IMG/VR virus record: IMGVR_UViG_3300025035_000066
Coordinates: 1 to 34,313 of that record
Source: a virus
Lineage: Duplodnaviria; Caudoviricetes
Length of the DNA stretch: 34,313 nucleotides
Reading direction: 5' to 3' (one strand)
Part shown: piece after piece, positions 1,409 through 27,472 of the stretch
Numbering within the stretch: position 1 is the first letter of the stretch
How the letters are laid out: every line of letters starts with the position of its first letter
The notes under the pieces: generated by a model
What the model saw: the letters and a program-made list of their open reading frames with translations, nothing else
Database searches by the model: none
What the model was told of the DNA's origin: nothing
Program-made: the position numbers and the translations under genes

Positions 1409-2254
1409 ATGGCGGGGAAGGGAAGCAAGGCTGCAAAAGAAACAGGGGACGAATTGCCGGACGCAAAGCCTGACGCCAACCAATGGCGTGACCGGATTGT
1501 GGACGTGCAAAAAATGCGGGCCGGGGACATCCTTCCTCACGTCGGCAACTGGCGGCGGCATGGTAAAGCACAAGCGGACGCAACCCGTGGGGTGCTTGGG
1601 GAGGTGGGCAAAATTTCTGCCCTCCACGCATGGTACTCAGAACGCAACGGAGGCAAGCTAACCTACTTCGACGGGCACCTGCGCCGGGACCTGCGGCCTG
1701 ACGAGGAATGGACCATCCTGATAACGGACCTGACCGACGAAGAGGCAGACTACGCACTGAGTACATTTGACCCGATAGCGGCAATGGCCGACGCCGACGC
1801 CGCAGCCCTGGACGCCTTGCTGCAAAGCGTCAACAGCGGCGAAGAAGCTGTACAGCAGATACTGGCGGATTTGGCGCAAAGTGTGGGACTGTATGAAGAA
1901 GTTGACCAAAACTACAGCCGGAAGATAGAACCGCCGATTTACGAACCACAGGGAGAGAAGCCGTCAATAGATGAACTGTATGACGATTCAAAAACGAAGG
2001 AACTGGTGTCAGGGATAGATGCTGCTGAGGGACTAACAGAGCAAGAAAAGGAGTTTTTGCGGATAGCTGCACAGCGGCATACTGTTTTGAATTTCAGTAG
2101 GATTGCCAATTACTATGCCCATTCTCCGGCTGAGGTTCAATCCGTCATGGAAGATAGCGCCCTGGTGATTATTGATTTCAATAAGGCAATAGAGCAAGGA
2201 TTTATTTCATTTTCTAACGAGATAGCAAAGATTGCCCGTGCAGATGGCTACTAA
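1409..2254 (+). CDS. ParB-like N-terminal domain fused to a glycosyltransferase-associated helical domain
   Basis: ATG 1409 after AGGGAC; ParB-type motifs (PHVGNWRRH, YFDGHLRR, LSTFDPIAAMA); C-terminal YSRKIEPPIYEP...FLRIAAQRH...IANYYAH...MEDSALVIIDFNKAIEQG domain, which I recall next to phage GREB1-like glycosyltransferases. Confidence 0.75.
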   Translation: MAGKGSKAAKETGDELPDAKPDANQWRDRIVDVQKMRAGDILPHVGNWRRHGKAQADATRGVLGEVGKISALHAWYSERNGGKLTYFDGHLRRDLRPDEEWTILITDLTDEEADYALSTFDPIAAMADADAAALDALLQSVNSGEEAVQQILADLAQSVGLYEEVDQNYSRKIEPPIYEPQGEKPSIDELYDDSKTKELVSGIDAAEGLTEQEKEFLRIAAQRHTVLNFSRIANYYAHSPAEVQSVMEDSALVIIDFNKAIEQGFISFSNEIAKIARADGY

Positions 2255-3266
2255 ACACAACTACTTAATTGTAGGTGCTGGGCTGACCGGGGCGGTGTTA
2301 GCCAGGGAGTTGACCAATTCCGGTGCTAGATGTCTGGTGATTGACAAACGCAACCATGTGGGCGGCAATGTCTATGATGAAGTGATAGAAGGTGTTCGGG
2401 TGCATCGGTATGGCCCGCATATCTTCCACACGAACAGTCAGCGCATTTGGGAGTATGTAAACAGGTATTCGGGATGGATGCCTTACGAGCATCGAGTCAA
2501 GGCCCGTTTTGGTGGAAAGACATATAGCTTCCCGCCCAATCTGTTGACCTACGAGCAGCTTGGCATCAAACCTGACGACCCCGCCTTGTCGCAAGTTCTG
2601 TTTGATACCTTCTTTCGGGGATACTCTGCAAAGCAATGGGGACGACCTGCTGATGAAGTGCCGGCAGGAATTATCAAGCGCATTCCCATTCGATATGATT
2701 ATGATGACCGATATTTCAGCGACAAATTCCAGGGGCTTCCTACCGAAGGCTACACGGCTTTGGTGAACAATCTACTTTTGGGCATTTCGGTGGAAACCAG
2801 TATGGACTATTTCAGGGACCGAGAAGCGTTGAACCTGGAAGCTGAGCGAGTTATCTACACGGGGCCGATTGATGCGCTGTATGGGTATGATGCTGGCAGG
2901 CTTGAATACCGTTCCTTGCGGTTTGAAACTGAAACGGTGAAGAGTGAGTCGTACCAGGGCGCAGCCAGTATCAATTACACTGACTTGTCACCAGTTTTCA
3001 CGCGGGTGCATGAATGGCGGTACTTTGGATGGCAAGATGCGAAGTCGGGCATCATTACCAGGGAATACCCCGAAAGCCATAACGAATCAAACGAGCCATA
3101 TTACCCCGTGAATGATGACGCCAACAATGGTCTGTATCGTAGCTATCAGAATCGGGCAGAGGAGGATGGGGTGATTGTGGCGGGACGATTGGGCAGGTAT
3201 TGCTACTACGACATGCATCAGGCTATCGGGGCGGCCCTGCGGCTGGCAGGTGACTTGCTATGCTAG
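2244..3266 (+). CDS. glf: UDP-galactopyranose mutase (FAD-dependent)
   Basis: GAGLTG FAD motif, RNHVGGNVYD, HRYGPHIFHTN, GYSAKQWG, RIPIRYDYDDRYFSDKFQGLP, YRSLRFE, EPYYPV, GRLGRYCYYDM; ATG 2244 overlaps the upstream stop. Confidence 0.95.
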   Translation: MATKHNYLIVGAGLTGAVLARELTNSGARCLVIDKRNHVGGNVYDEVIEGVRVHRYGPHIFHTNSQRIWEYVNRYSGWMPYEHRVKARFGGKTYSFPPNLLTYEQLGIKPDDPALSQVLFDTFFRGYSAKQWGRPADEVPAGIIKRIPIRYDYDDRYFSDKFQGLPTEGYTALVNNLLLGISVETSMDYFRDREALNLEAERVIYTGPIDALYGYDAGRLEYRSLRFETETVKSESYQGAASINYTDLSPVFTRVHEWRYFGWQDAKSGIITREYPESHNESNEPYYPVNDDANNGLYRSYQNRAEEDGVIVAGRLGRYCYYDMHQAIGAALRLAGDLLC

Positions 3267-4114
3267 ATAATTTTGCGGTGTTCATCACTACGCACGGGAG
3301 AGCAAACAAGGTAGCCACCTATGATACTTTGCGAAAGCACGGGTACACGGGGAAAATCTATCTTATATGCGACGATGAAGACAAGACCCTAGACGAATAT
3401 CAACGTAAATATGGCGACGAGGTGATTGTCTTTGACAAAGAAGCGGCGGCACAATACGTAGATGCTGGCGACAATTCCCCCAGTCGAAAGGCTGTAGTCT
3501 ATGCCCGCAATGAATGTTACAGAATCGCCAGGGAGTTGGAGCTGCAATATATTTTGCAGGTGGACGATGACTATAAAGACTTCAATTATACGTTTGATTC
3601 AAAATTCAAGTATCTAAATCGACCCATTAGGAATCTTGATAGAGTCTTTTCTGCAACCCTGAAATACTTTGCCAGTATTCCCGCCTATTGCGTAACTTTT
3701 GCGCAGGGAGGTGACTTCTTTGGTGGAGAGGATGCCGATTATGCAAAAACTGTAATGACAAGACGAAAGATAATGAACACGTTTTTTCTTGATGTTGATC
3801 GACAATTCTCTTTTTTTGGCCGCATGAATGACGATGTAAACGCCTATGTGACGAATGGCTATCAAGGAAAATTGATGCTCTCCTTGATGCAGCTACGCAT
3901 TGAACAACTTCCTACTCAAAGTGCGTCGGGCGGAATGACAGAGGTTTATCAGGATCTCGGAACTTATCAAAAATCCTTCTATTCTGTCATGTATGCCCCG
4001 GCATTTGTGAAGATTGTTATGATGGGGACAAAACATAGAAGGCTGCACCACATGGTGGTTTGGGAAAATGCAGCACCTCGCATTCTTGATGAGAGATGGC
4101 GAAAGGCCAGATAA
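3260..4114 (+). CDS. GREB1-like / TET-associated (TAGT-type) GT-A glycosyltransferase
   Basis: FAVFITTHGRA start, ICDDED, VVYARN, LQVDDDY (DxD-like), RKIMNTFF, GRMNDDVN, Q..TQS.SGGMTEVY...GTYQKSFYSVMYAP..V, HRRLHH.V.W. Confidence 0.8.
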   Translation: MLDNFAVFITTHGRANKVATYDTLRKHGYTGKIYLICDDEDKTLDEYQRKYGDEVIVFDKEAAAQYVDAGDNSPSRKAVVYARNECYRIARELELQYILQVDDDYKDFNYTFDSKFKYLNRPIRNLDRVFSATLKYFASIPAYCVTFAQGGDFFGGEDADYAKTVMTRRKIMNTFFLDVDRQFSFFGRMNDDVNAYVTNGYQGKLMLSLMQLRIEQLPTQSASGGMTEVYQDLGTYQKSFYSVMYAPAFVKIVMMGTKHRRLHHMVVWENAAPRILDERWRKAR

Positions 4115-9271: not shown

Positions 9272-9313
9272 GCGGCGAGAGACACAGCAATGTGTCACTC
9301 GCCGCTTTTTTTT
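9272..9313 (+). terminator. Strong intrinsic terminator in the head-operon leader
   Basis: GCGGCGAG-A-GACACA [GCAA] TGTGTC-A-CTCGCCGC followed by T8. Confidence 0.85.
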
Positions 9314-9337
9314 GCCCTCCATCCTGGAGACAACGCC

Positions 9338-10576
9338 ATGAATCTTGACAACCAGATTTTTGAACACCCCGCCAAAGTCCTCACCGTCGCAGAGACGGGC
9401 GACCTGCTTGCCCTTGTCAAGCAGAGCCACGCCCTGGACGCCGCAAGTCTTACCGAGTACCCCCCCTTCTTCTTCCGGGCCGAGATTTCCAGCGACCGGT
9501 TGGACAGCTACTTCACCCGTATGCACGAAACCTCTCTCGTCAACTACGCACAGGACGCCGCCACGGGCATCTCCTTCCAAAATAGTCACAACCACCACGA
9601 GATGGGCTTCGGACGTTCCCTGACGGGCTTGTTCGTGCCTGGGGAGGACGTGGACACCGTGCTGGCCGACTTCTACACCGTGCGGGGTCTGACGCTGAAC
9701 GGCATCAACACGGACCACCTCATCACCGGCATCCGCACGGGGCTGGTGAAGGACGTCAGCATCGGCTTCTACGGGGGCGAATACATCTGCTCCATCTGCG
9801 GGCGGGACCTGTGGGATTGGGACTGCACCCACGTTCCCGGATTCAAGTACGCACCCCCTGACGAGAAGGGCAACAAGGGGGAAGAGGAACTGGCCTTCGC
9901 CTGGGTACGGGACGCCCATCTTGCGGAAGTGTCAGCCGTGTATGACGGGGCCACGCCTGGGGCGGCCATCTTGAAGGCGCAGCAGGAATCGGAGGCGGGT
10001 CGGTTATCCCCGGAAAAGGCACGGATATTGGAGAGTCGCTATCGTATCGCTTTGCCCGGCAAGCGCCAGCAGTGGGCCGGGGCCAATCTATCGCAGGAGG
10101 AATCAATGACGAAAGACACGAAGAACGAGAAGGACATGCAGGACCCGCAGGAGGAGGAGCGCTTTGCCGTCCTGCAACGCATGGAGAGCGCCCTGGAGTC
10201 CGTGGCCGGGGCCAACGTGGAGGCGAAGCTGGCTGGTCTGCTGGCCGAACGCACGAGCACCGCCCAGCGGGTCAAGGATCTGGCCGGCGAGGTCGCCACC
10301 CTGAAGCCCCTGGCCGAGGACGGGCACACCTATCGGGCCGATCTGGTTTCCACCGCCCTGGCCGAAGGGGTTCGGGCCTATGGGGGGACCTTTGACGAGG
10401 CCACCTACCGCAAGCTGCTGGAAGCCTCGGATCTGACCGTGGTCAAGCGGCTGCGGGACGACTGGACGCTGATTGCCGAGGGTCGCTTCCCCGGGGGCCG
10501 CCAGACCAAAGACGGCCACGACGCAGGTGCCGTCTCCACTGAGGCCACCATTCCCGCTGCGGCCTATCGGGCCTAG
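9338..10576 (+). CDS. Prohead protease fused to a scaffold domain
   Basis: ATG 9338 after GGAGA; SFQNSHNH, KDVSIGF, CSICG...C.HVPG, AEVSAVYDGA protease motifs; coiled-coil C-terminus. Confidence 0.85.
   Translation: MNLDNQIFEHPAKVLTVAETGDLLALVKQSHALDAASLTEYPPFFFRAEISSDRLDSYFTRMHETSLVNYAQDAATGISFQNSHNHHEMGFGRSLTGLFVPGEDVDTVLADFYTVRGLTLNGINTDHLITGIRTGLVKDVSIGFYGGEYICSICGRDLWDWDCTHVPGFKYAPPDEKGNKGEEELAFAWVRDAHLAEVSAVYDGATPGAAILKAQQESEAGRLSPEKARILESRYRIALPGKRQQWAGANLSQEESMTKDTKNEKDMQDPQEEERFAVLQRMESALESVAGANVEAKLAGLLAERTSTAQRVKDLAGEVATLKPLAEDGHTYRADLVSTALAEGVRAYGGTFDEATYRKLLEASDLTVVKRLRDDWTLIAEGRFPGGRQTKDGHDAGAVSTEATIPAAAYRA
10106..10576 (+). CDS. Nested in-frame scaffolding protein
   Basis: AGGAGG-aatca-ATG at 10106, in frame, at the protease/coiled-coil boundary. 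Confidence 0.6.
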   Translation: MTKDTKNEKDMQDPQEEERFAVLQRMESALESVAGANVEAKLAGLLAERTSTAQRVKDLAGEVATLKPLAEDGHTYRADLVSTALAEGVRAYGGTFDEATYRKLLEASDLTVVKRLRDDWTLIAEGRFPGGRQTKDGHDAGAVSTEATIPAAAYRA

Positions 10577-12338: not shown

Positions 12339-12761
12339 ATGTCCTACGTGACCGTGCGTAGCGCCACCGGGGACGACCGGGTGGTGCTGTGGGAGCGGGA
12401 TCCCCGTCACCCGGACGGCGAGGTGTTCGTCGCCGGGGACACTCCTGTGCAAGCGGGCCTGACCCAAGCGGTGACCAACCGTATCCGGGACGGGCTGCTC
12501 GATGTGGTGGAAACGGGACAGGCGCAAGCGGAGAGTGAGGCGGGGCCGGAAGTGGGGCCAACCTCGCCTCTCCCCGCCCTGGCCGACGTGGTGGGCGAGA
12601 AAAACGAAGCCCTGCTCAACGGTATCCGCATCTTTTCGGTGGAAGAGTTGGCCGACGCTGACCCGGACCTGTTGGACGGTATCAAGGGCGTGGGCCGGAT
12701 AACCGCCGACGACTGGATCGCCAAGGCTCTGGCTATTCTCAACGACAAGGAGAAACCATGA
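12339..12761 (+). CDS. Helix-hairpin-helix domain protein
   Basis: C-terminal IFSVEELADADPDLLDGIKGVGRITADDWI HhH motif. Confidence 0.7.
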   Translation: MSYVTVRSATGDDRVVLWERDPRHPDGEVFVAGDTPVQAGLTQAVTNRIRDGLLDVVETGQAQAESEAGPEVGPTSPLPALADVVGEKNEALLNGIRIFSVEELADADPDLLDGIKGVGRITADDWIAKALAILNDKEKP

Positions 12762-13357
12762 ATCTCAATAGACAGAAATATGGGCGGGCGGGGGTGATCC
12801 TCGCCCTGATCCTGGCCCTGGCCCTGGCCGGGTGCGTCCAGTCTATCCCGACAGGCGAGGGCAGCCAACCTATTCACGTGGTCATCGACAATGCCGCCGA
12901 GGTGGGCGAGCAGTCGGTCAACTGGACTGCCCAGCCGGAAGAGGGGGGCAGCCGGGCCGTGGCTCCCAGCGGGGCCAGTGAGACCGGGTTCAACAACATG
13001 CAGGTGACCGGCTATGTGGATGTGCAGACGAATCTCTACGTGGGGGACTGGGTGCATATCTTCACGCAGACGCCCATCGCCGTGACGGACGGGGCGGTGA
13101 TCACGCCGACCGGAACCTATCAACCTTTGACCAGCGCCGGAAGCGTGACGGCCACCCTTACGACTTCCTCGGACTTCGTGACTGCCGGGGATGTACTGGT
13201 GCTCATCAACGCCAATAGCACCGTGACCAGTACCGTCAACATCGTGGATAGCGGAACGGCCATGCTTACCGCCGCCGCCGCCCTGGGCCAGTACGACAGC
13301 TTGACCCTATGGTTTGACGGCACGAATTGGATCGAACTCAGCCGGGCAAACAACTAG
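12758..13357 (+). CDS. Predicted lipoprotein with a Thr-rich beta domain
   Basis: Basic N-terminus, hydrophobic core and lipobox LAG-C (Cys26); AAGGAG RBS; ATGA overlap. Confidence 0.65.
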   Translation: MNLNRQKYGRAGVILALILALALAGCVQSIPTGEGSQPIHVVIDNAAEVGEQSVNWTAQPEEGGSRAVAPSGASETGFNNMQVTGYVDVQTNLYVGDWVHIFTQTPIAVTDGAVITPTGTYQPLTSAGSVTATLTTSSDFVTAGDVLVLINANSTVTSTVNIVDSGTAMLTAAAALGQYDSLTLWFDGTNWIELSRANN

Positions 13358-20345: not shown

Positions 20346-21407
20346 ATGTCTGATTTTGTACCTATCTTTGTGGATGGATTTGACATCAACTTTGCGGACG
20401 GCAGCGCGGGGCTGTGGGACTCAGCCGTGGGGGGTGGGGATCTACTTTACACAAACACCAGAACCAGGTCGGGGTTTGGGGCTTTGGAGATCCAAGGTAA
20501 TCGGTTCGCTAGGACGGAATTGACCAGAGCTTTCCCCTCGGCCACTGAGATGTATTTTGGCTTCTCACTGGATCTGAACTCGGACACGGCCATCAACCCA
20601 TACAACGGGGACGACTTGATATTTTTGAGGCTGTACGATTCGTCTGGCGGTGTGCAGATGGCTTTTGGCATCAACAAAACGACCCATACTCTGCGCGTCT
20701 TCAGGGGCATGGGCACCCTACTGGACGCATCGAGCGGGGCTTATCCTGAAGACGCCAGCGGGTACTTGGAGATTCACGTAGTGGTGTCTGACACCGTGGG
20801 GGTCATACAGGTAAAGCTGAACGGCGCTTTGGTGGTAGATTACTCAGGTGACACCAAGGACACGTCAGTGGCGAACATTGCCACGATTGGCATCGCCAAC
20901 CAAAATACGGGAACTCTGTACTATTGTACTGCCCACTTCCACGTTGACGATTTCGTGATGGGGACCACGGACTGGCCGGGCCAGCCCGTGGTCATCCCTG
21001 TCTTTCCCGACGCGGACGGGACTCACTCGGACTGGACAAGTACGGACGGGGACCAGCACAGCGCCATCGATGAGCTGGGGACATACGGTAACGCCCCGGA
21101 TACGGCCACGAAGTTGACCGGCGCAGTCGTGGCCGAAAGTTCTAGCGTAGGGCTGTCGGCAGTGGGCCGAAGTGGAGAGGTGTTGGGTTTCCAGCTTGCC
21201 ACCTACATGCAGAAAAGCGATACGGGCGCAGCATCGGCTGAGGAGTTTTTGCGAATCGGTGGAACGGAATACAACATAGCCACCCTGTCGCCAGGGGCCG
21301 CATGGGGCTGGTTGATTGAGGCCGTTGCGACAAGCCCTGACACGGCCGAAAAGTTCACTGTGACCGAGATTGACAGCATGGAGATTGGTTGGACTAAAGC
21401 AACATGA
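20346..21407 (+). CDS. Minor tail protein with lectin-like beta-sandwich domains
   Basis: FVDGFD start, YLEIHV...QVKLNGALVV, HVDDF, PDADG...W, IDSMEIG motifs. Confidence 0.6.
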   Translation: MSDFVPIFVDGFDINFADGSAGLWDSAVGGGDLLYTNTRTRSGFGALEIQGNRFARTELTRAFPSATEMYFGFSLDLNSDTAINPYNGDDLIFLRLYDSSGGVQMAFGINKTTHTLRVFRGMGTLLDASSGAYPEDASGYLEIHVVVSDTVGVIQVKLNGALVVDYSGDTKDTSVANIATIGIANQNTGTLYYCTAHFHVDDFVMGTTDWPGQPVVIPVFPDADGTHSDWTSTDGDQHSAIDELGTYGNAPDTATKLTGAVVAESSSVGLSAVGRSGEVLGFQLATYMQKSDTGAASAEEFLRIGGTEYNIATLSPGAAWGWLIEAVATSPDTAEKFTVTEIDSMEIGWTKAT

Positions 21408-24400
21408 CCAGTGTCAGCGTAGCCTCAGTAATGGGATATGCAGCCGTAGCCGAGCAGTCGAGCGTTGAAATTGCCTCGGTCATCGGCTATGTCGCCGTGG
21501 GCGCGGTGACGAGCGTCGAGGTTGCTTCAGTCGTCGGATACGTGGCCATGATTGAGGCAATTCCCACGGGTGGGGCCCATGTCTCTTCCGGGGTTGTGGG
21601 GGCAGGGGGAGGGCCATCCAGCAAACGGCCCACGCCTTCAGACATCCAACCCCCTGCCCCACTGACCAGCCAACACGCTCCCGATGGCCGGGCCGGGTAC
21701 TCCAAGATGAGGATCTTTGTCGGTCCTCCCTGGCGTAAATCTGATGAGTCGGATTTTTGGGACTTCTCTTCGTTGGCTCTTACTGCCTACGCGCCTCACG
21801 CCGGGACAACGGTCGCCGCCAACGTAGGGGCAAGTGACACGTCCCTGACCGTGACAGATGCCACCGGCTGGCCGACTGCCGGGTCGGTATGGCTGGGGCC
21901 AGGGGCAAGCGGGCAGAGTTGGGGGCTGGCCAGCTACACCGGGCGCACGGGCAACCTGCTCACCGGGCTTGTCCGGGACGCGGTGGACGCAGAGTACAAT
22001 GGCCTCCACACAGCCGGGGCGGTGGCCGCTTTCTGGTATCCGCTTACGGAAAACGATGGCTCCCTGGGCTTCCGGGAATACTCAGACGCTGATCAATCGG
22101 CCATCACATGGGATCTGAGTCTCGCTGGCGTCAATGCGCCCGTGGGCATACTCCGATCCGGGGCGCTGGTGCTGGTGCAAACCCGCGAGATAAGCGGAGG
22201 GGCTTGGGGATCATGGACCAATTGGGCAATCGGCTGGCTGGCCGGGTCAAATCCCCAGGATGACGAGAACCGGGTGGGCCAGTGGTCGGCCACCGTGGGC
22301 ACCCTATCCGATGTTCCCTTGTCGGCCAGCGTGACCGGCCTGCACGTTGGGGAGAGGGATGTAGCCGACGAAGCGGGAACCAGCGCATCCGGTAGCCTCT
22401 CGCCGGTCTACAAGGCGATTGGCAACGGGTCCGGGGAGATCATCAGCGAGAATGAGACCGTCACACCCGGCCAGGCCATCGATGGGGCGCTGGCCACGGC
22501 CTGGGTCTCCGACCGCTACTATGGGGAGGATAACCCGCACCATACGCCGGGCACGGAGACCCTGGACGGCATCCGGGAGACGCATGGGGTCACACAGGCC
22601 CACCTCACCCGCTACACCGGCCAGAGCGATGGGTACAGGTGGATTGAGATCACCTTCTTCCAGGACTTCAACGCCTCGGATTGGCTGATCGCCGGGGTGG
22701 ATTGGATGGTCCCCTTTGAGAATGATGATTCGCTCGACTACTCAGCCGGGCAGCGGGTGATCCTGGCAGAGAACCCGGAACTATTTCAGGCCGAGAATCC
22801 AGAGAACGAGGCCGACGCCGTTCTCGACCTGGCTGATTACTTGTTGTGGAATATGTACAATCAGAAATACACCGTGGAGAACGATGCAACCGGGGGCACA
22901 TTCACGCTCACCGTGGACAGCCAGGCCACCGGGGCCATTGCCTACAACGCCACAGCCGCTACGGTTCAGGCCGCCCTCGTGGGCCTGTCCAGCGTAGGGG
23001 CCGACAGCGCCATTGTGACCGGATCTGCCGGCGCGCTGGTGGTCACGTTCTGCAATGGCCTGGGGTCCGGCGACGGGCCAGGCCTGTCCGGGGATGGGGG
23101 CAGCCTGACCGGGGGCACCCTGACCGTCACGCAGACCCAGGCCGGGGGCTTCCCCTTCGCCACATCCAGCGATGGGACGGCCATCTTTGATCACCTCGAT
23201 CCGGCTCAGGGAGTGATCCGGCTGTATTGGGGCGTCTCAGGCCAGGGGCAAAGCATCTTGGCGTGGGGCGGAGGTGATCCGATCACCCGATGGGGTACGT
23301 TCTGGACCGGGGACGCTCTGCCCGTCCTGGGCACGGCGCAGACCGCCCGCATGAAATTCAACCCGACCACGCCCACGGCCACGGCTGACTTTTGGGAGGT
23401 GGGCCGGGTTGCCACGCCGGGCTATAACATTCTGGCCGCAGACAAGGCTTGGATCTTGCTCGACCTGCCCTCGATGGGGCTGAAGCTGGCAGAGGACATC
23501 ACGGACACCGTGCCGGGCATCGGGGACGAGTTGAGCATAGAGAACGTGGCCGGGGCCAGCGTCGAGGGGCTTCCGGCTTCCGGGCCTTTGCAGGTGGGCG
23601 ACGAACAGATCACTTACTCGGCCAGGGACACCGTGGCCGGGTCGGTCACGGTGTCGGCGAGAGGGGCAAACGGCACAACGCCGGTCGCCCACGACGCCGG
23701 GGATCCGGTCTACTTTGTGGACGGCGCAGGGGTGGCCACGGACGCCTACCCCATCGACACGATCCGGGTGCGCCGCCCTGCTGGGCTTGCCGTGCCAGAA
23801 GACTTTGTGATCCGGGGGTCCGCCCTCTCTTCGGCCAGAGACCCAAACCAGACCAACTACACGACCGACTATGTGACCCTGGCCACCGTGACCGGGAATG
23901 TCCTTGAATCCTACAGTTTGGATTTATCCGGGGCACCGCCCCGCATCCGTTACCTGCTGGTGGAAGTGACGGCTATGTCTGATGGACCGTCACGGGTGTG
24001 GGTGAACGAGTTGGACGCCGTGGTCGATCCTGACGTGTTGACGCCGGGGGCAAACCTGGCCAGTGGGACCGTGGCTGACGCCATCGCCGCCTTGCTTGCC
24101 CAGGCGGGCTTACCTGCCGGGTGTTTGGTGGACGCCGGGGACACCATCAGCCTGTCCAACTACACGACAGCCGGGGGGTCTTTGTGGCCCATCCTCTCGG
24201 ACCTGGCCAACTTCTCCGGGACTCGTATCCGAGTGGGCCGGGATAGCAAGCTCTATGTCCGCAAAGATCCGTTCTGGACCGGGACGCCCACGCCGGACGG
24301 GGAATGGTCTCGCACGGAGGTGCGCCACGTCTCGCCGTCCAGGGCGGTCAACCAGAAGGTGGGGCAAATCTCGTTGACCTGGCGCAGCGCAGATGACCCA

Positions 24401-24730
24401 GGGGAGAGTACGGTCAATCAGCCATCGACCCGGGCGCGCACGGGGGATGTGGTGAGCGTGGGGCCGTACATCTTCGCCGATGAGACCGCCGCCACGGTCG
24501 CCGCTCTCAAACGGTACTGGCAGGCCCGGCGTCCTTACACCACGCTCATGGAGTTGGCCTTCCCTGGCCAGGCCCTGGAAGTGGGACAGGTGTATGAGGT
24601 GACATGGGCCTTTACCGGGCGCACGGAGGTTCGTACCTACTCCCTGGCCACGTTAAATCTCGACTTTCGCAAATCCTCTTGGCAGACGGTTGTGGCCGGT
24701 GTCCAGATCGATCGGGAGGACGAACGCTAA
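21404..24730 (+). CDS. Large multidomain tail tip / baseplate hub protein
   Basis: 1108 aa; discoidin-like motifs, repeated beta domains, hub-like C-terminus (LWPILSDLANFSG.RIRVGRDSKLYV). Confidence 0.7.
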   Translation: MTSVSVASVMGYAAVAEQSSVEIASVIGYVAVGAVTSVEVASVVGYVAMIEAIPTGGAHVSSGVVGAGGGPSSKRPTPSDIQPPAPLTSQHAPDGRAGYSKMRIFVGPPWRKSDESDFWDFSSLALTAYAPHAGTTVAANVGASDTSLTVTDATGWPTAGSVWLGPGASGQSWGLASYTGRTGNLLTGLVRDAVDAEYNGLHTAGAVAAFWYPLTENDGSLGFREYSDADQSAITWDLSLAGVNAPVGILRSGALVLVQTREISGGAWGSWTNWAIGWLAGSNPQDDENRVGQWSATVGTLSDVPLSASVTGLHVGERDVADEAGTSASGSLSPVYKAIGNGSGEIISENETVTPGQAIDGALATAWVSDRYYGEDNPHHTPGTETLDGIRETHGVTQAHLTRYTGQSDGYRWIEITFFQDFNASDWLIAGVDWMVPFENDDSLDYSAGQRVILAENPELFQAENPENEADAVLDLADYLLWNMYNQKYTVENDATGGTFTLTVDSQATGAIAYNATAATVQAALVGLSSVGADSAIVTGSAGALVVTFCNGLGSGDGPGLSGDGGSLTGGTLTVTQTQAGGFPFATSSDGTAIFDHLDPAQGVIRLYWGVSGQGQSILAWGGGDPITRWGTFWTGDALPVLGTAQTARMKFNPTTPTATADFWEVGRVATPGYNILAADKAWILLDLPSMGLKLAEDITDTVPGIGDELSIENVAGASVEGLPASGPLQVGDEQITYSARDTVAGSVTVSARGANGTTPVAHDAGDPVYFVDGAGVATDAYPIDTIRVRRPAGLAVPEDFVIRGSALSSARDPNQTNYTTDYVTLATVTGNVLESYSLDLSGAPPRIRYLLVEVTAMSDGPSRVWVNELDAVVDPDVLTPGANLASGTVADAIAALLAQAGLPAGCLVDAGDTISLSNYTTAGGSLWPILSDLANFSGTRIRVGRDSKLYVRKDPFWTGTPTPDGEWSRTEVRHVSPSRAVNQKVGQISLTWRSADDPGESTVNQPSTRARTGDVVSVGPYIFADETAATVAALKRYWQARRPYTTLMELAFPGQALEVGQVYEVTWAFTGRTEVRTYSLATLNLDFRKSSWQTVVAGVQIDREDER

Positions 24731-25218
24731 TGGCCAGCCGACTTTACTACGAGGCGCTGAATCAGCAATCCACCGAGGGGCTGGGGGATTCCCTGCTCCG
24801 GGCCTTTGAGGGCAAAAAGCGAAAACACATGGGCGTCTACCTGGGGCGCAATCAGATCCAGGTGAATGGCCAGCGTTACCGGTTCCGCAATGAGAGCGGG
24901 CTGGATGTGGCCGAGGGGGAAGCTCTGGCGGTGGTGAACGTGGGACGACTCGCCGCGGCTGAGTATGCGCCGGCGAGTGGGGCCGGGTCCGTGGCAACCG
25001 GGGGAGGATCGTCCGGGGGAAGCTCTACCAGTCTGGCCGATCACAACCATTCCGGGGCGGCGGGGAGCGGTGGGGCATTGGCCGGGTATGCGCCCGTTAT
25101 CCATACCCACGTCGAGGCAGGCATCACAGATCTAGACCACACCCAGGCCCTGGGGTGGATTGTCTGCACCAATGACGCAATCGTGATCAACGCAGGGGAG
25201 GTAGTATGGCAGCGTTAA
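24730..25218 (+). CDS. Tail fibre/spike-like protein
   Basis: ATG 24730 overlaps the TAA; Gly/Ser linker then HxH motifs (DHNHSG, IHTHVEAGITDLDH). Confidence 0.55.
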   Translation: MASRLYYEALNQQSTEGLGDSLLRAFEGKKRKHMGVYLGRNQIQVNGQRYRFRNESGLDVAEGEALAVVNVGRLAAAEYAPASGAGSVATGGGSSGGSSTSLADHNHSGAAGSGGALAGYAPVIHTHVEAGITDLDHTQALGWIVCTNDAIVINAGEVVWQR

Positions 25219-25595
25219 ACCAAAACGCCATTTCGTTACTGGCGACTGTGACCGGGATCGACGCCAAGACCGTGGCCGCCACCACGCTCTATACTGTGCC
25301 GGTCGGCAAGTCTTTGATCGTGGATCATTTGGTGATCCGAGTGACGGTTTTCACGGTGGGAGCTAAGTCGGTTCAGGCTGTGGCCTCCTTCGGCGGCAAC
25401 TCTGCCACCTGGGACGACTATCTCGACACCATCGCCTATACCGTGGCGGCAGCAGATGTGGCGATTCAGGATAGTGTGGAAGATGCCGCATTCCCCGTCT
25501 ATGCGGATGGGGATCTGTTCAAATTGAGCGTTGAAACCGGCAGCGATGCCACCGCGGAGACGTGGGCGGTTGACCTATTCGGATACCTGATTTGA
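25206..25595 (+). CDS. Small structural beta-sandwich protein
   Basis: TTLYTVPVGKSLIV motif; GGGAGG RBS. Confidence 0.55.
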   Translation: MAALNQNAISLLATVTGIDAKTVAATTLYTVPVGKSLIVDHLVIRVTVFTVGAKSVQAVASFGGNSATWDDYLDTIAYTVAAADVAIQDSVEDAAFPVYADGDLFKLSVETGSDATAETWAVDLFGYLI

Positions 25596-25627: not shown

Positions 25628-25918
25628 ATGGAAGACGTAAAGAAACCGGGCCTGACGCTCTCGCTGGCGTTTGCGGTCCTCATGTGGGTCGTGGACTTTG
25701 TGGACAAACGCTGGCTGCACTTTCAGTTTGCCGAGTGGTTCCCGTCCTTCCTGGCCAGCCTTCAGGTGTTGGCCGGCGTGGTGGGGCTGGTGGTCGCGGC
25801 CCTGGCCTCCGCTTGGGTTTCGTTTATGGGGGAAGCCGCCAAGCAACAGCAGACCAACCCGAACACTCGCGGGGCTGAACCGGTAAAGCGCAAATCGTTC
25901 TGGCGTTACGCCCTGTAG
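25628..25918 (+). CDS. Membrane protein A, holin-like (2 TM)
   Basis: ATG 25628 after GAGGA; two hydrophobic segments and a basic C-terminus. Confidence 0.6.
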   Translation: MEDVKKPGLTLSLAFAVLMWVVDFVDKRWLHFQFAEWFPSFLASLQVLAGVVGLVVAALASAWVSFMGEAAKQQQTNPNTRGAEPVKRKSFWRYAL

Positions 25919-25931
25919 AGGCCCCAAAAAA

Positions 25932-26231
25932 ATGAGAATTAAGACACAGGGAACAGTCTGGACAGTTCTGTTGTCCGCGGCGATGCTCATCGGCCAGTGG
26001 CTGGACGATACCTACTTCCACACCGGGATACGGGAATGGTTGCCGAAGTTCCTGAACAGTGCGCAGATGATCCTTGGGCTGGGTGCAGCGGCCGTTGGTC
26101 TAGCCTACACGATCTATATGGAGACCTTGGCAAAGCAGGCGCACAATTTTGGCCCAGACCACCTCCCCGACACGCGCTCAGTCAACTGGACGAGAGAGCC
26201 GGAAAAATCCCTACTGCGAAGGATTCTATGA
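25932..26231 (+). CDS. Membrane protein B, holin-like (2 TM), paralogue of A
   Basis: Shares EW.P.FL.S.Q...G and C-terminal TR...KS..R..L with protein A. Confidence 0.6.
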   Translation: MRIKTQGTVWTVLLSAAMLIGQWLDDTYFHTGIREWLPKFLNSAQMILGLGAAAVGLAYTIYMETLAKQAHNFGPDHLPDTRSVNWTREPEKSLLRRIL

Positions 26232-26617
26232 CCGTGAAAATTCTAATCGTGGAGGACGACGAGGGGCAGGCCCATCTTTACCGCAAAGCGTTGGAAAGGA
26301 TGTCTCTTGTCGAAGCGGTAAAATCCTGTCATTCTGGCCGTGAGGCGTTGGAGGTGGACTGGACAAACTACGATGTGGTGGTCGTGGATCTGTTCATGCC
26401 GGGCATGTCGGGCGACCAGGTGATCGCCCATGCCTATGAGAAGTGGGGCGAACTTTTGCCGCCCGTCCTCATTTTTACGGCCAGTCCAATGGTGCTGATT
26501 GATAAGATCTCGCTACCTATGCCACCCACCCCGATCTATCAGAAGATCGGGGGCCCGGAAAGTATCCTCCACATTTTAAGATCGGCTGTTCATGAAGCTT
26601 TTAATCGTCGCGCCTAA
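26228..26617 (+). CDS. Stand-alone response regulator receiver (CheY-like)
   Basis: ATGA overlap; KILIVEDD, phosphoacceptor D54 (VVDLFMPGMSG), T84, K106. Confidence 0.9.
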   Translation: MTVKILIVEDDEGQAHLYRKALERMSLVEAVKSCHSGREALEVDWTNYDVVVVDLFMPGMSGDQVIAHAYEKWGELLPPVLIFTASPMVLIDKISLPMPPTPIYQKIGGPESILHILRSAVHEAFNRRA

Positions 26618-27227
26618 ATCAAATTTGAACACGTTCAGCGAGATCTTGGATGCCACTGGACCGGGGGAAACCAGGGTTTTGCACGGCACGGTAACGGTGC
26701 GTGAGGTGATGACCGAGATCCGAACCGGACAGTTTACCCACATTTATTTCGCCGGACACGGGGACGATCAGTCTCTGATGTTTTCAGACGGTCTTCTGAA
26801 CAAAGCGCTGCTGGCTGATTCCATCCAGGCGGCGGGGGCCATTATTCTGGTCCTGTTCAATTCGTGTCAGAGTTTGGGGCCGGCCTTGGCTGCGTACGGA
26901 GCGGGCGTCCATTATGTGATCGGCTGGCAAGGAAATGTTTCAGATTCCGCCGCAATCAACTACGCCTACGCCTTCTGGGCCACCTACCGGCTGAGCAATG
27001 ATGTGCATGTGGCTCACCGCACGGGCCGGGAGGCTGTGATCTTCGGCAACCCGGGCCACGAGACCCCGGACCTGATCAACGGACGCAACAGCGGCTATCA
27101 GCAACGGGTCGAGTCGCTACAGGTGCAAGTGAGCCGACAGCGCCAATGGCTGTTTGTCCTGATGGTGACAACGGTGGCTTCGCTGGTTATCGAGACGATC
27201 ACTCTGTTTTTGATGTGGGGGACGTGA
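26592..27227 (+). CDS. CHAT (caspase/HetF-like) cysteine protease with C-terminal coiled coil and TM anchor
   Basis: HIYFAGHG (H56) and LVLFNSCQS (C92) dyad; GVHYVIGW..NVSDSAA..YAYAFW; terminal hydrophobic helix. Confidence 0.85.
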   Translation: MKLLIVAPKSNLNTFSEILDATGPGETRVLHGTVTVREVMTEIRTGQFTHIYFAGHGDDQSLMFSDGLLNKALLADSIQAAGAIILVLFNSCQSLGPALAAYGAGVHYVIGWQGNVSDSAAINYAYAFWATYRLSNDVHVAHRTGREAVIFGNPGHETPDLINGRNSGYQQRVESLQVQVSRQRQWLFVLMVTTVASLVIETITLFLMWGT

Positions 27228-27246: not shown

Positions 27247-27290
27247 AAAAAAGCCCCGGCCAGTGTTGCGCCGGGGCTTCGCTTATTCTT
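27247..27290. terminator. Bidirectional terminator between the convergent arms
   Basis: AAGCCCCGGC (27251-27260) / GCCGGGGCTT (27270-27279); A-tract on the left, T-rich on the right. Confidence 0.8.
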
Positions 27291-27472
27291 CACTTTTTAG
27301 ATTCAGCAATATTTTCTTGGGGTGCGATTCGTTTGAGTCTTGCCGCCCAGTATCCACCGGGGCAAGGTATCATCTTGCACTTGCGCGGCTTCCCAGCTAG
27401 ACACCCTTTGCAGGGTATCCATTCTTTATCCCAAACCAGCAAGTCAAAACTCATCTGCTTACTCTCCATCAA
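27290..27472 (-). CDS. Small hypothetical protein
   Basis: 60 aa, CxxC motif, GAGGGG RBS. Confidence 0.45.
   Translation of the reverse strand: MMESKQMSFDLLVWDKEWIPCKGCLAGKPRKCKMIPCPGGYWAARLKRIAPQENIAESKK

Follow-up and report, generated by a model that had tools for sequence, protein, structure and literature searches.

A caspase-fold protease of the CHAT type, predicted to be membrane-anchored, closes the late gene arm of this phage, and it belongs to a widespread family, built from a CHAT domain, a helix and a membrane anchor, that sequence conservation indicates is under selection for its catalytic His-Cys dyad. In the phage studied here, the protease gene is preceded by a stand-alone receiver domain and by two small, related proteins, and this four-gene block of 1.6 kb, with which the late arm finishes, is likely the lysis cassette. 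We tentatively propose, with confidence a little short of even, that the late, membrane-tethered protease is a lysis accessory that times permeabilisation, with the receiver adding phospho-control by the host in this lineage. The window, meaning the whole stretch of 34,313 nucleotides that was analysed, is a linear phage record with a completeness rating of 62%.

The late-arm block and its CHAT protease

On the plus strand of the window, genes for terminase, portal, capsid and tail run as far as 25595; the arm that converges on them starts at 27459. The last tail genes, encoding a large tail protein, a 162-aa product and a 129-aa product (21404-25595, plus strand), are followed on the same strand by gene A (25628-25918; 96 aa, two predicted membrane segments and a basic C-terminal tail), gene B (25932-26231; 99 aa, a less hydrophobic paralogue of A), REC (26228-26617; 129 aa, a stand-alone receiver domain, PF00072) and CHAT (26592-27227; 211 aa, a minimal caspase-fold protease over residues 1-165 with H56/C92). 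B and REC share an ATGA overlap at 26228, and REC and CHAT overlap by 26 bp at 26592. Rechecking of the open reading frames and translations reproduced the genes, coordinates, overlaps and named residues of a preliminary description of this DNA. Counterparts of the large tail protein and the 162-aa gene stand in the same order in the phage record G011.

Between the converging late and early arms, fold and sequence reveal a G+C-rich hairpin (about 27247-27279, no strand assigned), which is absent from the output of a consensus terminator scan. It had been taken for a bidirectional terminator. The A6 run on its left flank makes it a good terminator for the minus strand, whereas the plus-strand T tail is broken, and we therefore retain the hairpin as a terminator-like element that is strongest on the minus strand.

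Several other genes of the window merit mention in their own right. Just before the terminase, a UDP-galactopyranose mutase gene adjoins a TET-associated glycosyltransferase gene (2232-4114), a pair that suggests galactofuranose-type modification of DNA or virion. Among the head genes, a lipoprotein-like gene (12758-13357), with an LAGC motif that we take to be a lipobox, has a weak PHROG match to an Rz-like spanin (E 5.5e-4), and in the record G003 a membrane-anchored gene (L069:12887-13369) occupies a similar position.

The CHAT protein of the window reaches E 1e-4 and 22 bits against PF12770, below the 24-bit cut-off, while 73 of 75 aligned family members match the same profile at E<=0.05 and several relatives pass its cut-off. 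Its structural model (pLDDT 95) consists of a compact domain and then a single helix (residues 167-210) that ends in a predicted membrane segment at about 187-205. The best Foldseek match of the model is SAVED-CHAT (8tl0, E 2.5e-11, TM 0.67), followed by caspases and Csx29. Both the caspase-like alpha/beta fold and the His-Cys dyad (H56/C92) are thus present, and model, fold match and residues agree with the earlier description of a minimal CHAT protease with a C-terminal membrane helix.

Searching 1.84 billion representatives yielded 333 matches at E<=0.001, of which 150 were listed. We aligned 75 proteins of about 200-255 residues with the match near the N-terminus, namely 73 of the listed matches, the CHAT protein of the window and P0006. 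In this alignment, drawn from the matches listed, C92 is present in 75/75 and H56 in 69/75 proteins; six members (P0010, P0012, P0028, P0032, P0037 and P0038) keep the Cys and have the catalytic His replaced, by Asp in five and by Gln in one. A C-terminal hydrophobic segment falls within the last 70 residues of 73 of the 75 aligned proteins, and without the selection for an N-terminal match it is found in 93 of 114 proteins of 190-300 residues among the matches listed. More Lys and Arg residues lie before than after the segment in 67 of the 73 members that have it, and the median tail is 5 residues long. Under the positive-inside rule a basic flank stays on the cytoplasmic side, which predicts a cytoplasmic position for the catalytic domain. 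Viral labels predominate in the nearest Atlas clusters (75-95%), on the basis of the few members with a record.

None of the 75 family members matches XhlA (PF10779). Cultured phage records held no CHAT relative beyond one chance match, sequence comparison with the PDB found none, and a motif scan of a genome collection returned nine loci, none of which is a full-length family member or comes from Chloroflexota. The phage G007, which also has a small CHAT protein with a membrane segment, encodes a second CHAT open reading frame of 1228 aa on the opposite strand of its head region (L013:617-4303).

By fold and dyad the protein is a CHAT protease, but it is neither a SAVED-CHAT nor a TPR-CHAT effector. 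SAVED-CHAT of type III-B CRISPR/CBASS is a signal-gated protease with a His-Cys caspase fold (10.1101/2023.06.23.546230), and the window protein resembles it in fold and in the gating that we propose. Unlike SAVED-CHAT, it is encoded in the late arm of a phage, lacks the SAVED sensor and consists of a minimal domain, a helix and a tail anchor; where SAVED-CHAT senses cyclic oligoadenylate, it has a receiver as its neighbour. Neither a fused SAVED or TPR sensor in the 211-aa protein nor CRISPR or CBASS genes in the window were found. A second likeness is to DdvA (8rw5, among the fold matches), which is also membrane-anchored, has a His-Cys dyad and is proposed to be signal-activated. DdvA is described as a transmembrane anti-sigma factor with TPR-CHAT, in which the CHAT domain is periplasmic, follows the TPR repeats and controls a sigma factor (PMC11506125). 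In contrast, the CHAT domain of the window protein is N-terminal and predicted to be cytoplasmic, and it has neither TPR repeats nor a sigma gene alongside.

The receiver and its pairing with CHAT

REC matches PF00072 with E 6e-11 (42.9 bits against a cut-off of 30.2) and has no output domain. With D10, D11, D54, T84 and K106 all present, it has the acidic pocket, Asp, Thr/Ser and Lys of single-domain response regulators, and the CheY-like receiver with intact D54/T84/K106 that was first described is borne out by profile and residues alike.

Among viral records, a motif scan found 17 loci, of which 11 have a CHAT family member (L006 and L018 encode an identical protein). A receiver is found in three of these 11 (L010, L012, L019), always directly upstream of CHAT; with the upstream DNA cut off in L015 and L017, this amounts to three of the nine in which it could be seen. 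A metagenome scan returned 30 loci, of which two are this phage, 27 are partial or weaker matches and one, L032, was read for context and is the fourth other phage with REC directly upstream of CHAT. A second viral scan (alignment A10) produced no records beyond those already found. Counting the present phage, the arrangement thus occurs in five phages, a count that covers the 11 motif loci, L032 and six lysin-linked loci considered below. The other four are divergent: their CHAT-linked receivers have 21-30% identity to REC of the window, with D10, D11, D54 and K106 invariant, as is W45. The view of REC and CHAT as a conserved pair therefore held. A closer pair, P0006 and P0007, is 77% and 67% identical to that of the window, and each comes from a contig of 9551 bases, probably the same one.

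The pairing is not shared by the whole family. REC is missing from eight of the 11 motif-scan records and from five of the six lysin-linked loci (only G011 has it), and hence gating is not general. In a tree of 87 rows, 74 of them without known context, a single 97/80 branch separates six REC-linked from seven REC-free proteases, a split equalled by none of 500 label shuffles; L017 was labelled REC-free despite its truncated upstream region and P0006 REC-linked although its adjacency to P0007 is only indirect. The split may reflect kinship only. On these sequences, REC-CHAT pairing looks heritable in one lineage and dispensable for the CHAT family.

No kinase was matched in the window or in the scanned open reading frames of G013 and G017, two near-identical records that extend it, which is why the kinase in our proposal is one of the host. 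A complex prediction with two CHAT copies (residues 1-190) and REC, run without controls, scored 0.00 against a mark of 0.32 and is neutral on binding. A further receiver, in L063, was dropped from consideration, as it belongs to a different large phage and has no CHAT adjoining. In that unrelated phage, the receiver (L063:5567-6270) overlaps an upstream membrane-plus-helix gene, without a protease; at a distance of 4 kb there is a sensor-like gene of 1051 aa. Another phage-encoded receiver is that of gene G48 of Alteromonas phage R8W, a response-regulator gene annotated as PhoB-like and metabolic, for which the available portion of the report states no link to lysis or to a protease (PMC8228385).

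Membrane genes, lysis neighbourhoods and the endolysin

Genes A and B encode related proteins, with 29% identity over 93 residues (E 5e-10) and an alignment score of 91 that none of 2000 shuffles matched (shuffled score 25+/-4.5). A has two clear membrane segments (hydropathy 1.85 and 2.36). In B, the best segment reaches 1.51 and the first stays under 1.4, and of the two related 2-TM proteins first described, the relatedness and the two segments of A are upheld while B is only marginally hydrophobic. As small membrane proteins with a charged C-terminus at a lysis-cassette site, the two fit the profile of holins, B with its marginal hydrophobicity, and we infer that A is likely a holin or holin regulator. 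Neither protein has a family in Pfam, PHROGs or PADLOC; NCBIfam matches are weak (E 0.067 or worse), and no described holin family was matched in Pfam, PHROGs, NCBIfam or Atlas. Searches by tblastn and with a two-sequence profile found A/B in no other phage among the loci examined, nor were they found in the 25 further viral loci of the lysin-module set, and we no longer regard the pair as a fixed part of the module. Other small membrane genes adjoin CHAT where A/B are missing (L003, L004, L113, L128), while in L010 and L032 REC-CHAT closes the tail genes with no called membrane gene just upstream.

Holin-endolysin cassettes, including those of the XhlA type, commonly close the tail arm or precede HNH/terminase and contain small membrane genes. 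The present block resembles them in its position, its small membrane genes and the helix-plus-membrane C-terminus of CHAT; to our knowledge, however, known lysis cassettes hold neither a cysteine protease nor a receiver.

The neighbourhoods of CHAT genes in other phages bear directly on this likeness. G011, whose tail arm corresponds gene by gene to that of the window, carries a lysin-associated gene after its fibre gene and before REC-CHAT, spread over two overlapping frames. This copy has no Pfam match; longer homologues of the module (65 matches) mostly have M23, Amidase_2, GH108 or muramidase domains. In six of 25 viral loci with the lysin-associated module, a small CHAT gene lies no more than about 1 kb away on the same strand; in the other 19 CHAT was not found within the available flank. 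Four of the six adjoin an enzyme that Pfam assigns to GH108 or M23, L116 has just the module, and the sixth is G011. The order is GH108+SH3 endolysin, CHAT with a membrane segment and a 44-aa membrane gene in L113; CHAT with a membrane segment, a membrane gene, a 2-TM gene and a GH108 endolysin in L128; and lysin module, M23 peptidase and CHAT in both L110 and L114. The tail anchor is present in three of these six CHAT proteins. An anchor-less sub-type with a long helix directly follows lysin genes at L110:6638-7423, L114:8669-9415 and L116:8762-9475. With CHAT close to the lysin module and to GH108 or M23 enzymes in several loci, we conclude that this is a family of lysis-gene neighbours that occurs alongside endolysins. 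The lysis-cassette position first assigned to the block is accordingly strengthened by relatives in which CHAT repeatedly lies near an endolysin and small membrane genes, and by the synteny of G011.

Two features of these phages are of separate interest. A conserved module of about 300 aa (L019:9104-10221; P0172-P0236), with invariant NEP and HEY motifs and at best a weak Pfam match, is fused in phage lysins to interchangeable M23, Amidase_2, GH108 or muramidase domains; we take it to be glycoside-hydrolase-like, and it possibly represents a catalytic domain, so far undescribed, that acts on the host envelope. The late arm of G008, a CHAT-carrying phage, holds an FGE-sulfatase-like gene, bAvd and a reverse transcriptase in a row (L078:4503-6982), which is a diversity-generating retroelement-like block.

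Five CHAT loci lie away from recognised lysis genes: L005, L013 and L015, where CHAT stands among head-tail genes, and L006 and L018 (identical proteins), where it comes right after the terminase. This variable position along the late arm, together with the optional REC and with closest folds that are bacterial immune signalling proteins, would also suit counter-defence or host control. On that view, the target of CHAT late in infection would be a host protein of defence or signalling, REC would serve as a decoy or phosphate sink, and lysis genes would be nearby only because they, too, are late. Yet in unrelated phages the gene is packed tightly against endolysin and small membrane genes, often with overlaps, which is difficult to reconcile with this explanation, and we consider it unlikely.

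Late-arm ends are common sites for added cargo, and the block sits at one, with a G+C content (0.53-0.61) slightly below that of the large tail gene (0.64). It is thus conceivable that the block serves prophage defence or superinfection exclusion, with REC sensing stress and CHAT opening an A/B pore that aborts infection. CHAT proteases are reported to act in abortive defence (10.1101/2023.06.23.546230). Several results nevertheless make this role quite improbable: PADLOC (library of 2023) returns nothing for CHAT, A or B and, for REC, just weak, generic receiver matches; a sigma-70 scan, whose consensus may not suit the host, finds no promoter of the block's own; the genes are co-oriented and overlapping with late genes in the loci read; and no integrase was matched in the scanned open reading frames of this phage.

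The preliminary description went further and envisaged that REC-gated proteolysis of A/B alone releases the phage, with no endolysin. In the window, a 62%-complete linear fragment, no wall hydrolase was matched in 46 open reading frames by Pfam or PHROGs. G013 overlaps the right end of the window (99.2% over 1452 bases) and is in turn overlapped by G017 (99.8% over 15.3 kb), and the three separate, near-identical records together cover about 53.5 kb, where the completeness rating would lead one to expect roughly 55 kb. No wall hydrolase was found in 27 open reading frames of G013 by Pfam (26 of its 32 called genes, six short ones being omitted, and one uncalled frame) or in three of G017 by NCBIfam. 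None of G012, G013 and G017 reaches the left end of the window to close a circle; contigs extend at least 1552 bases beyond that end. The 65 lysin-module proteins match nothing in the window, G013, G001, G003, G005 or G007. G001 (67 kb, rated 100% complete) likewise has no Pfam wall hydrolase among the called genes scanned, three long uncalled open reading frames lying outside that scan, and its CHAT adjoins a small membrane gene; some members of the family may thus have an endolysin-free exit.

Against such an exit stand the GH108 and M23 enzymes that adjoin the same protease family in other phages and, in G011, the closest syntenic REC-CHAT phage, a lysin-associated gene within the same cassette; the module does not appear to stand in for an endolysin. 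Pfam also misses divergent hydrolases: a 115-aa SleB-like gene right after the portal of G007 (L072:17304-17651) has no Pfam match and was recognised by profile comparison (85% over 32 columns), so that in these phages little can be concluded when Pfam matches nothing. In the present phage, a weak candidate is P0237 (L094:15622-16131 of G013, plus strand), a 169-aa protein of the replication/middle arm that begins with a membrane segment at its N-terminus and has SleB-like motif residues. The Glu and several motif residues of Hydrolase_2 align with it, at an hhalign probability of 6% and E 0.006, and it is the best non-training match among 4850 segments, with an E of 0.69. It has no PF07486 match, its single-sequence model has a pLDDT of 43, and a wide fold search found nothing at Z 5 or above. 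By these motifs P0237 is a possible signal-anchored wall hydrolase, and the wall is probably cut by a separate, divergent hydrolase, either P0237 or a gene in the unseen gap of at least 1.5 kb to the left of the window. The lack of a recognisable endolysin is thus confirmed for the late arm of the window and for about 53.5 kb of near-identical records, its extension to relatives fails, and we judge release by proteolysis of A/B alone to be decidedly improbable.

The likely host agrees with the need for a hydrolase. One Caldilineaceae-named homologue of the lysin-module gene of G011, together with synteny, weakly indicates that the host is probably a member of the Caldilineaceae (Chloroflexota). 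For Litorilinea aerophila, of the class Caldilineae, one report describes a peptidoglycan-like layer and an intact pathway (PMC13319060). The atypical envelope that had been invoked therefore gains little support, as the likely host family has such a layer.

Least probable of all is a role in virion assembly, with CHAT processing a structural protein at the membrane, since the loci with CHAT among head-tail genes (L005, L013, L015) or after the terminase (L006/L018) are set against most others, which put CHAT with lysis genes, against a candidate head protease already present in the window (9290-10576, weak PHROG match), and against a receiver partner that such a role would hardly explain.

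Proposed role in lysis

As a lysis accessory, the protease would act as follows. The block would be co-expressed late in infection, and CHAT would hang from the inner face of the membrane, where it would cut a membrane lysis protein (a holin or an antiholin). SAVED-CHAT is activated when it forms filaments, and by analogy the activating step may be oligomerisation through the long helix. A and B, as a holin or a holin/antiholin pair, would be candidate substrates of the protease, and phosphorylation of REC by a host kinase would gate CHAT. Relatives keep CHAT beside wall-cutting enzymes, which suggests that the protease helps to time the bursting of the host and does not replace those enzymes. 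A bolder version, which we think rather unlikely, is a eukaryote-like death switch in phages probably of Chloroflexota, in which a host kinase phosphorylates the phage REC, REC in turn frees or switches on CHAT, and CHAT then cuts A/B as a holin pair so that the membrane opens, in this phage perhaps without a conventional endolysin.

A literature search, with most subscription papers outside its scope, found no paper that describes phage lysis cassettes with a CHAT protease or with REC and CHAT as a pair. The one match that combined CHAT with endolysin was a mycobacteriophage gene annotated as CHAT-containing (10.1101/2023.05.30.542743). With four genes in 1.6 kb, the module is small enough to be testable in laboratory strains. 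The timing of lysis is usually explained by holin accumulation and antiholins. If the proposed role is true, proteolysis and host two-component signalling would become inputs to the lysis decision, and phages would be using for their own exit a caspase-fold enzyme that has so far been studied as a bacterial immune effector.
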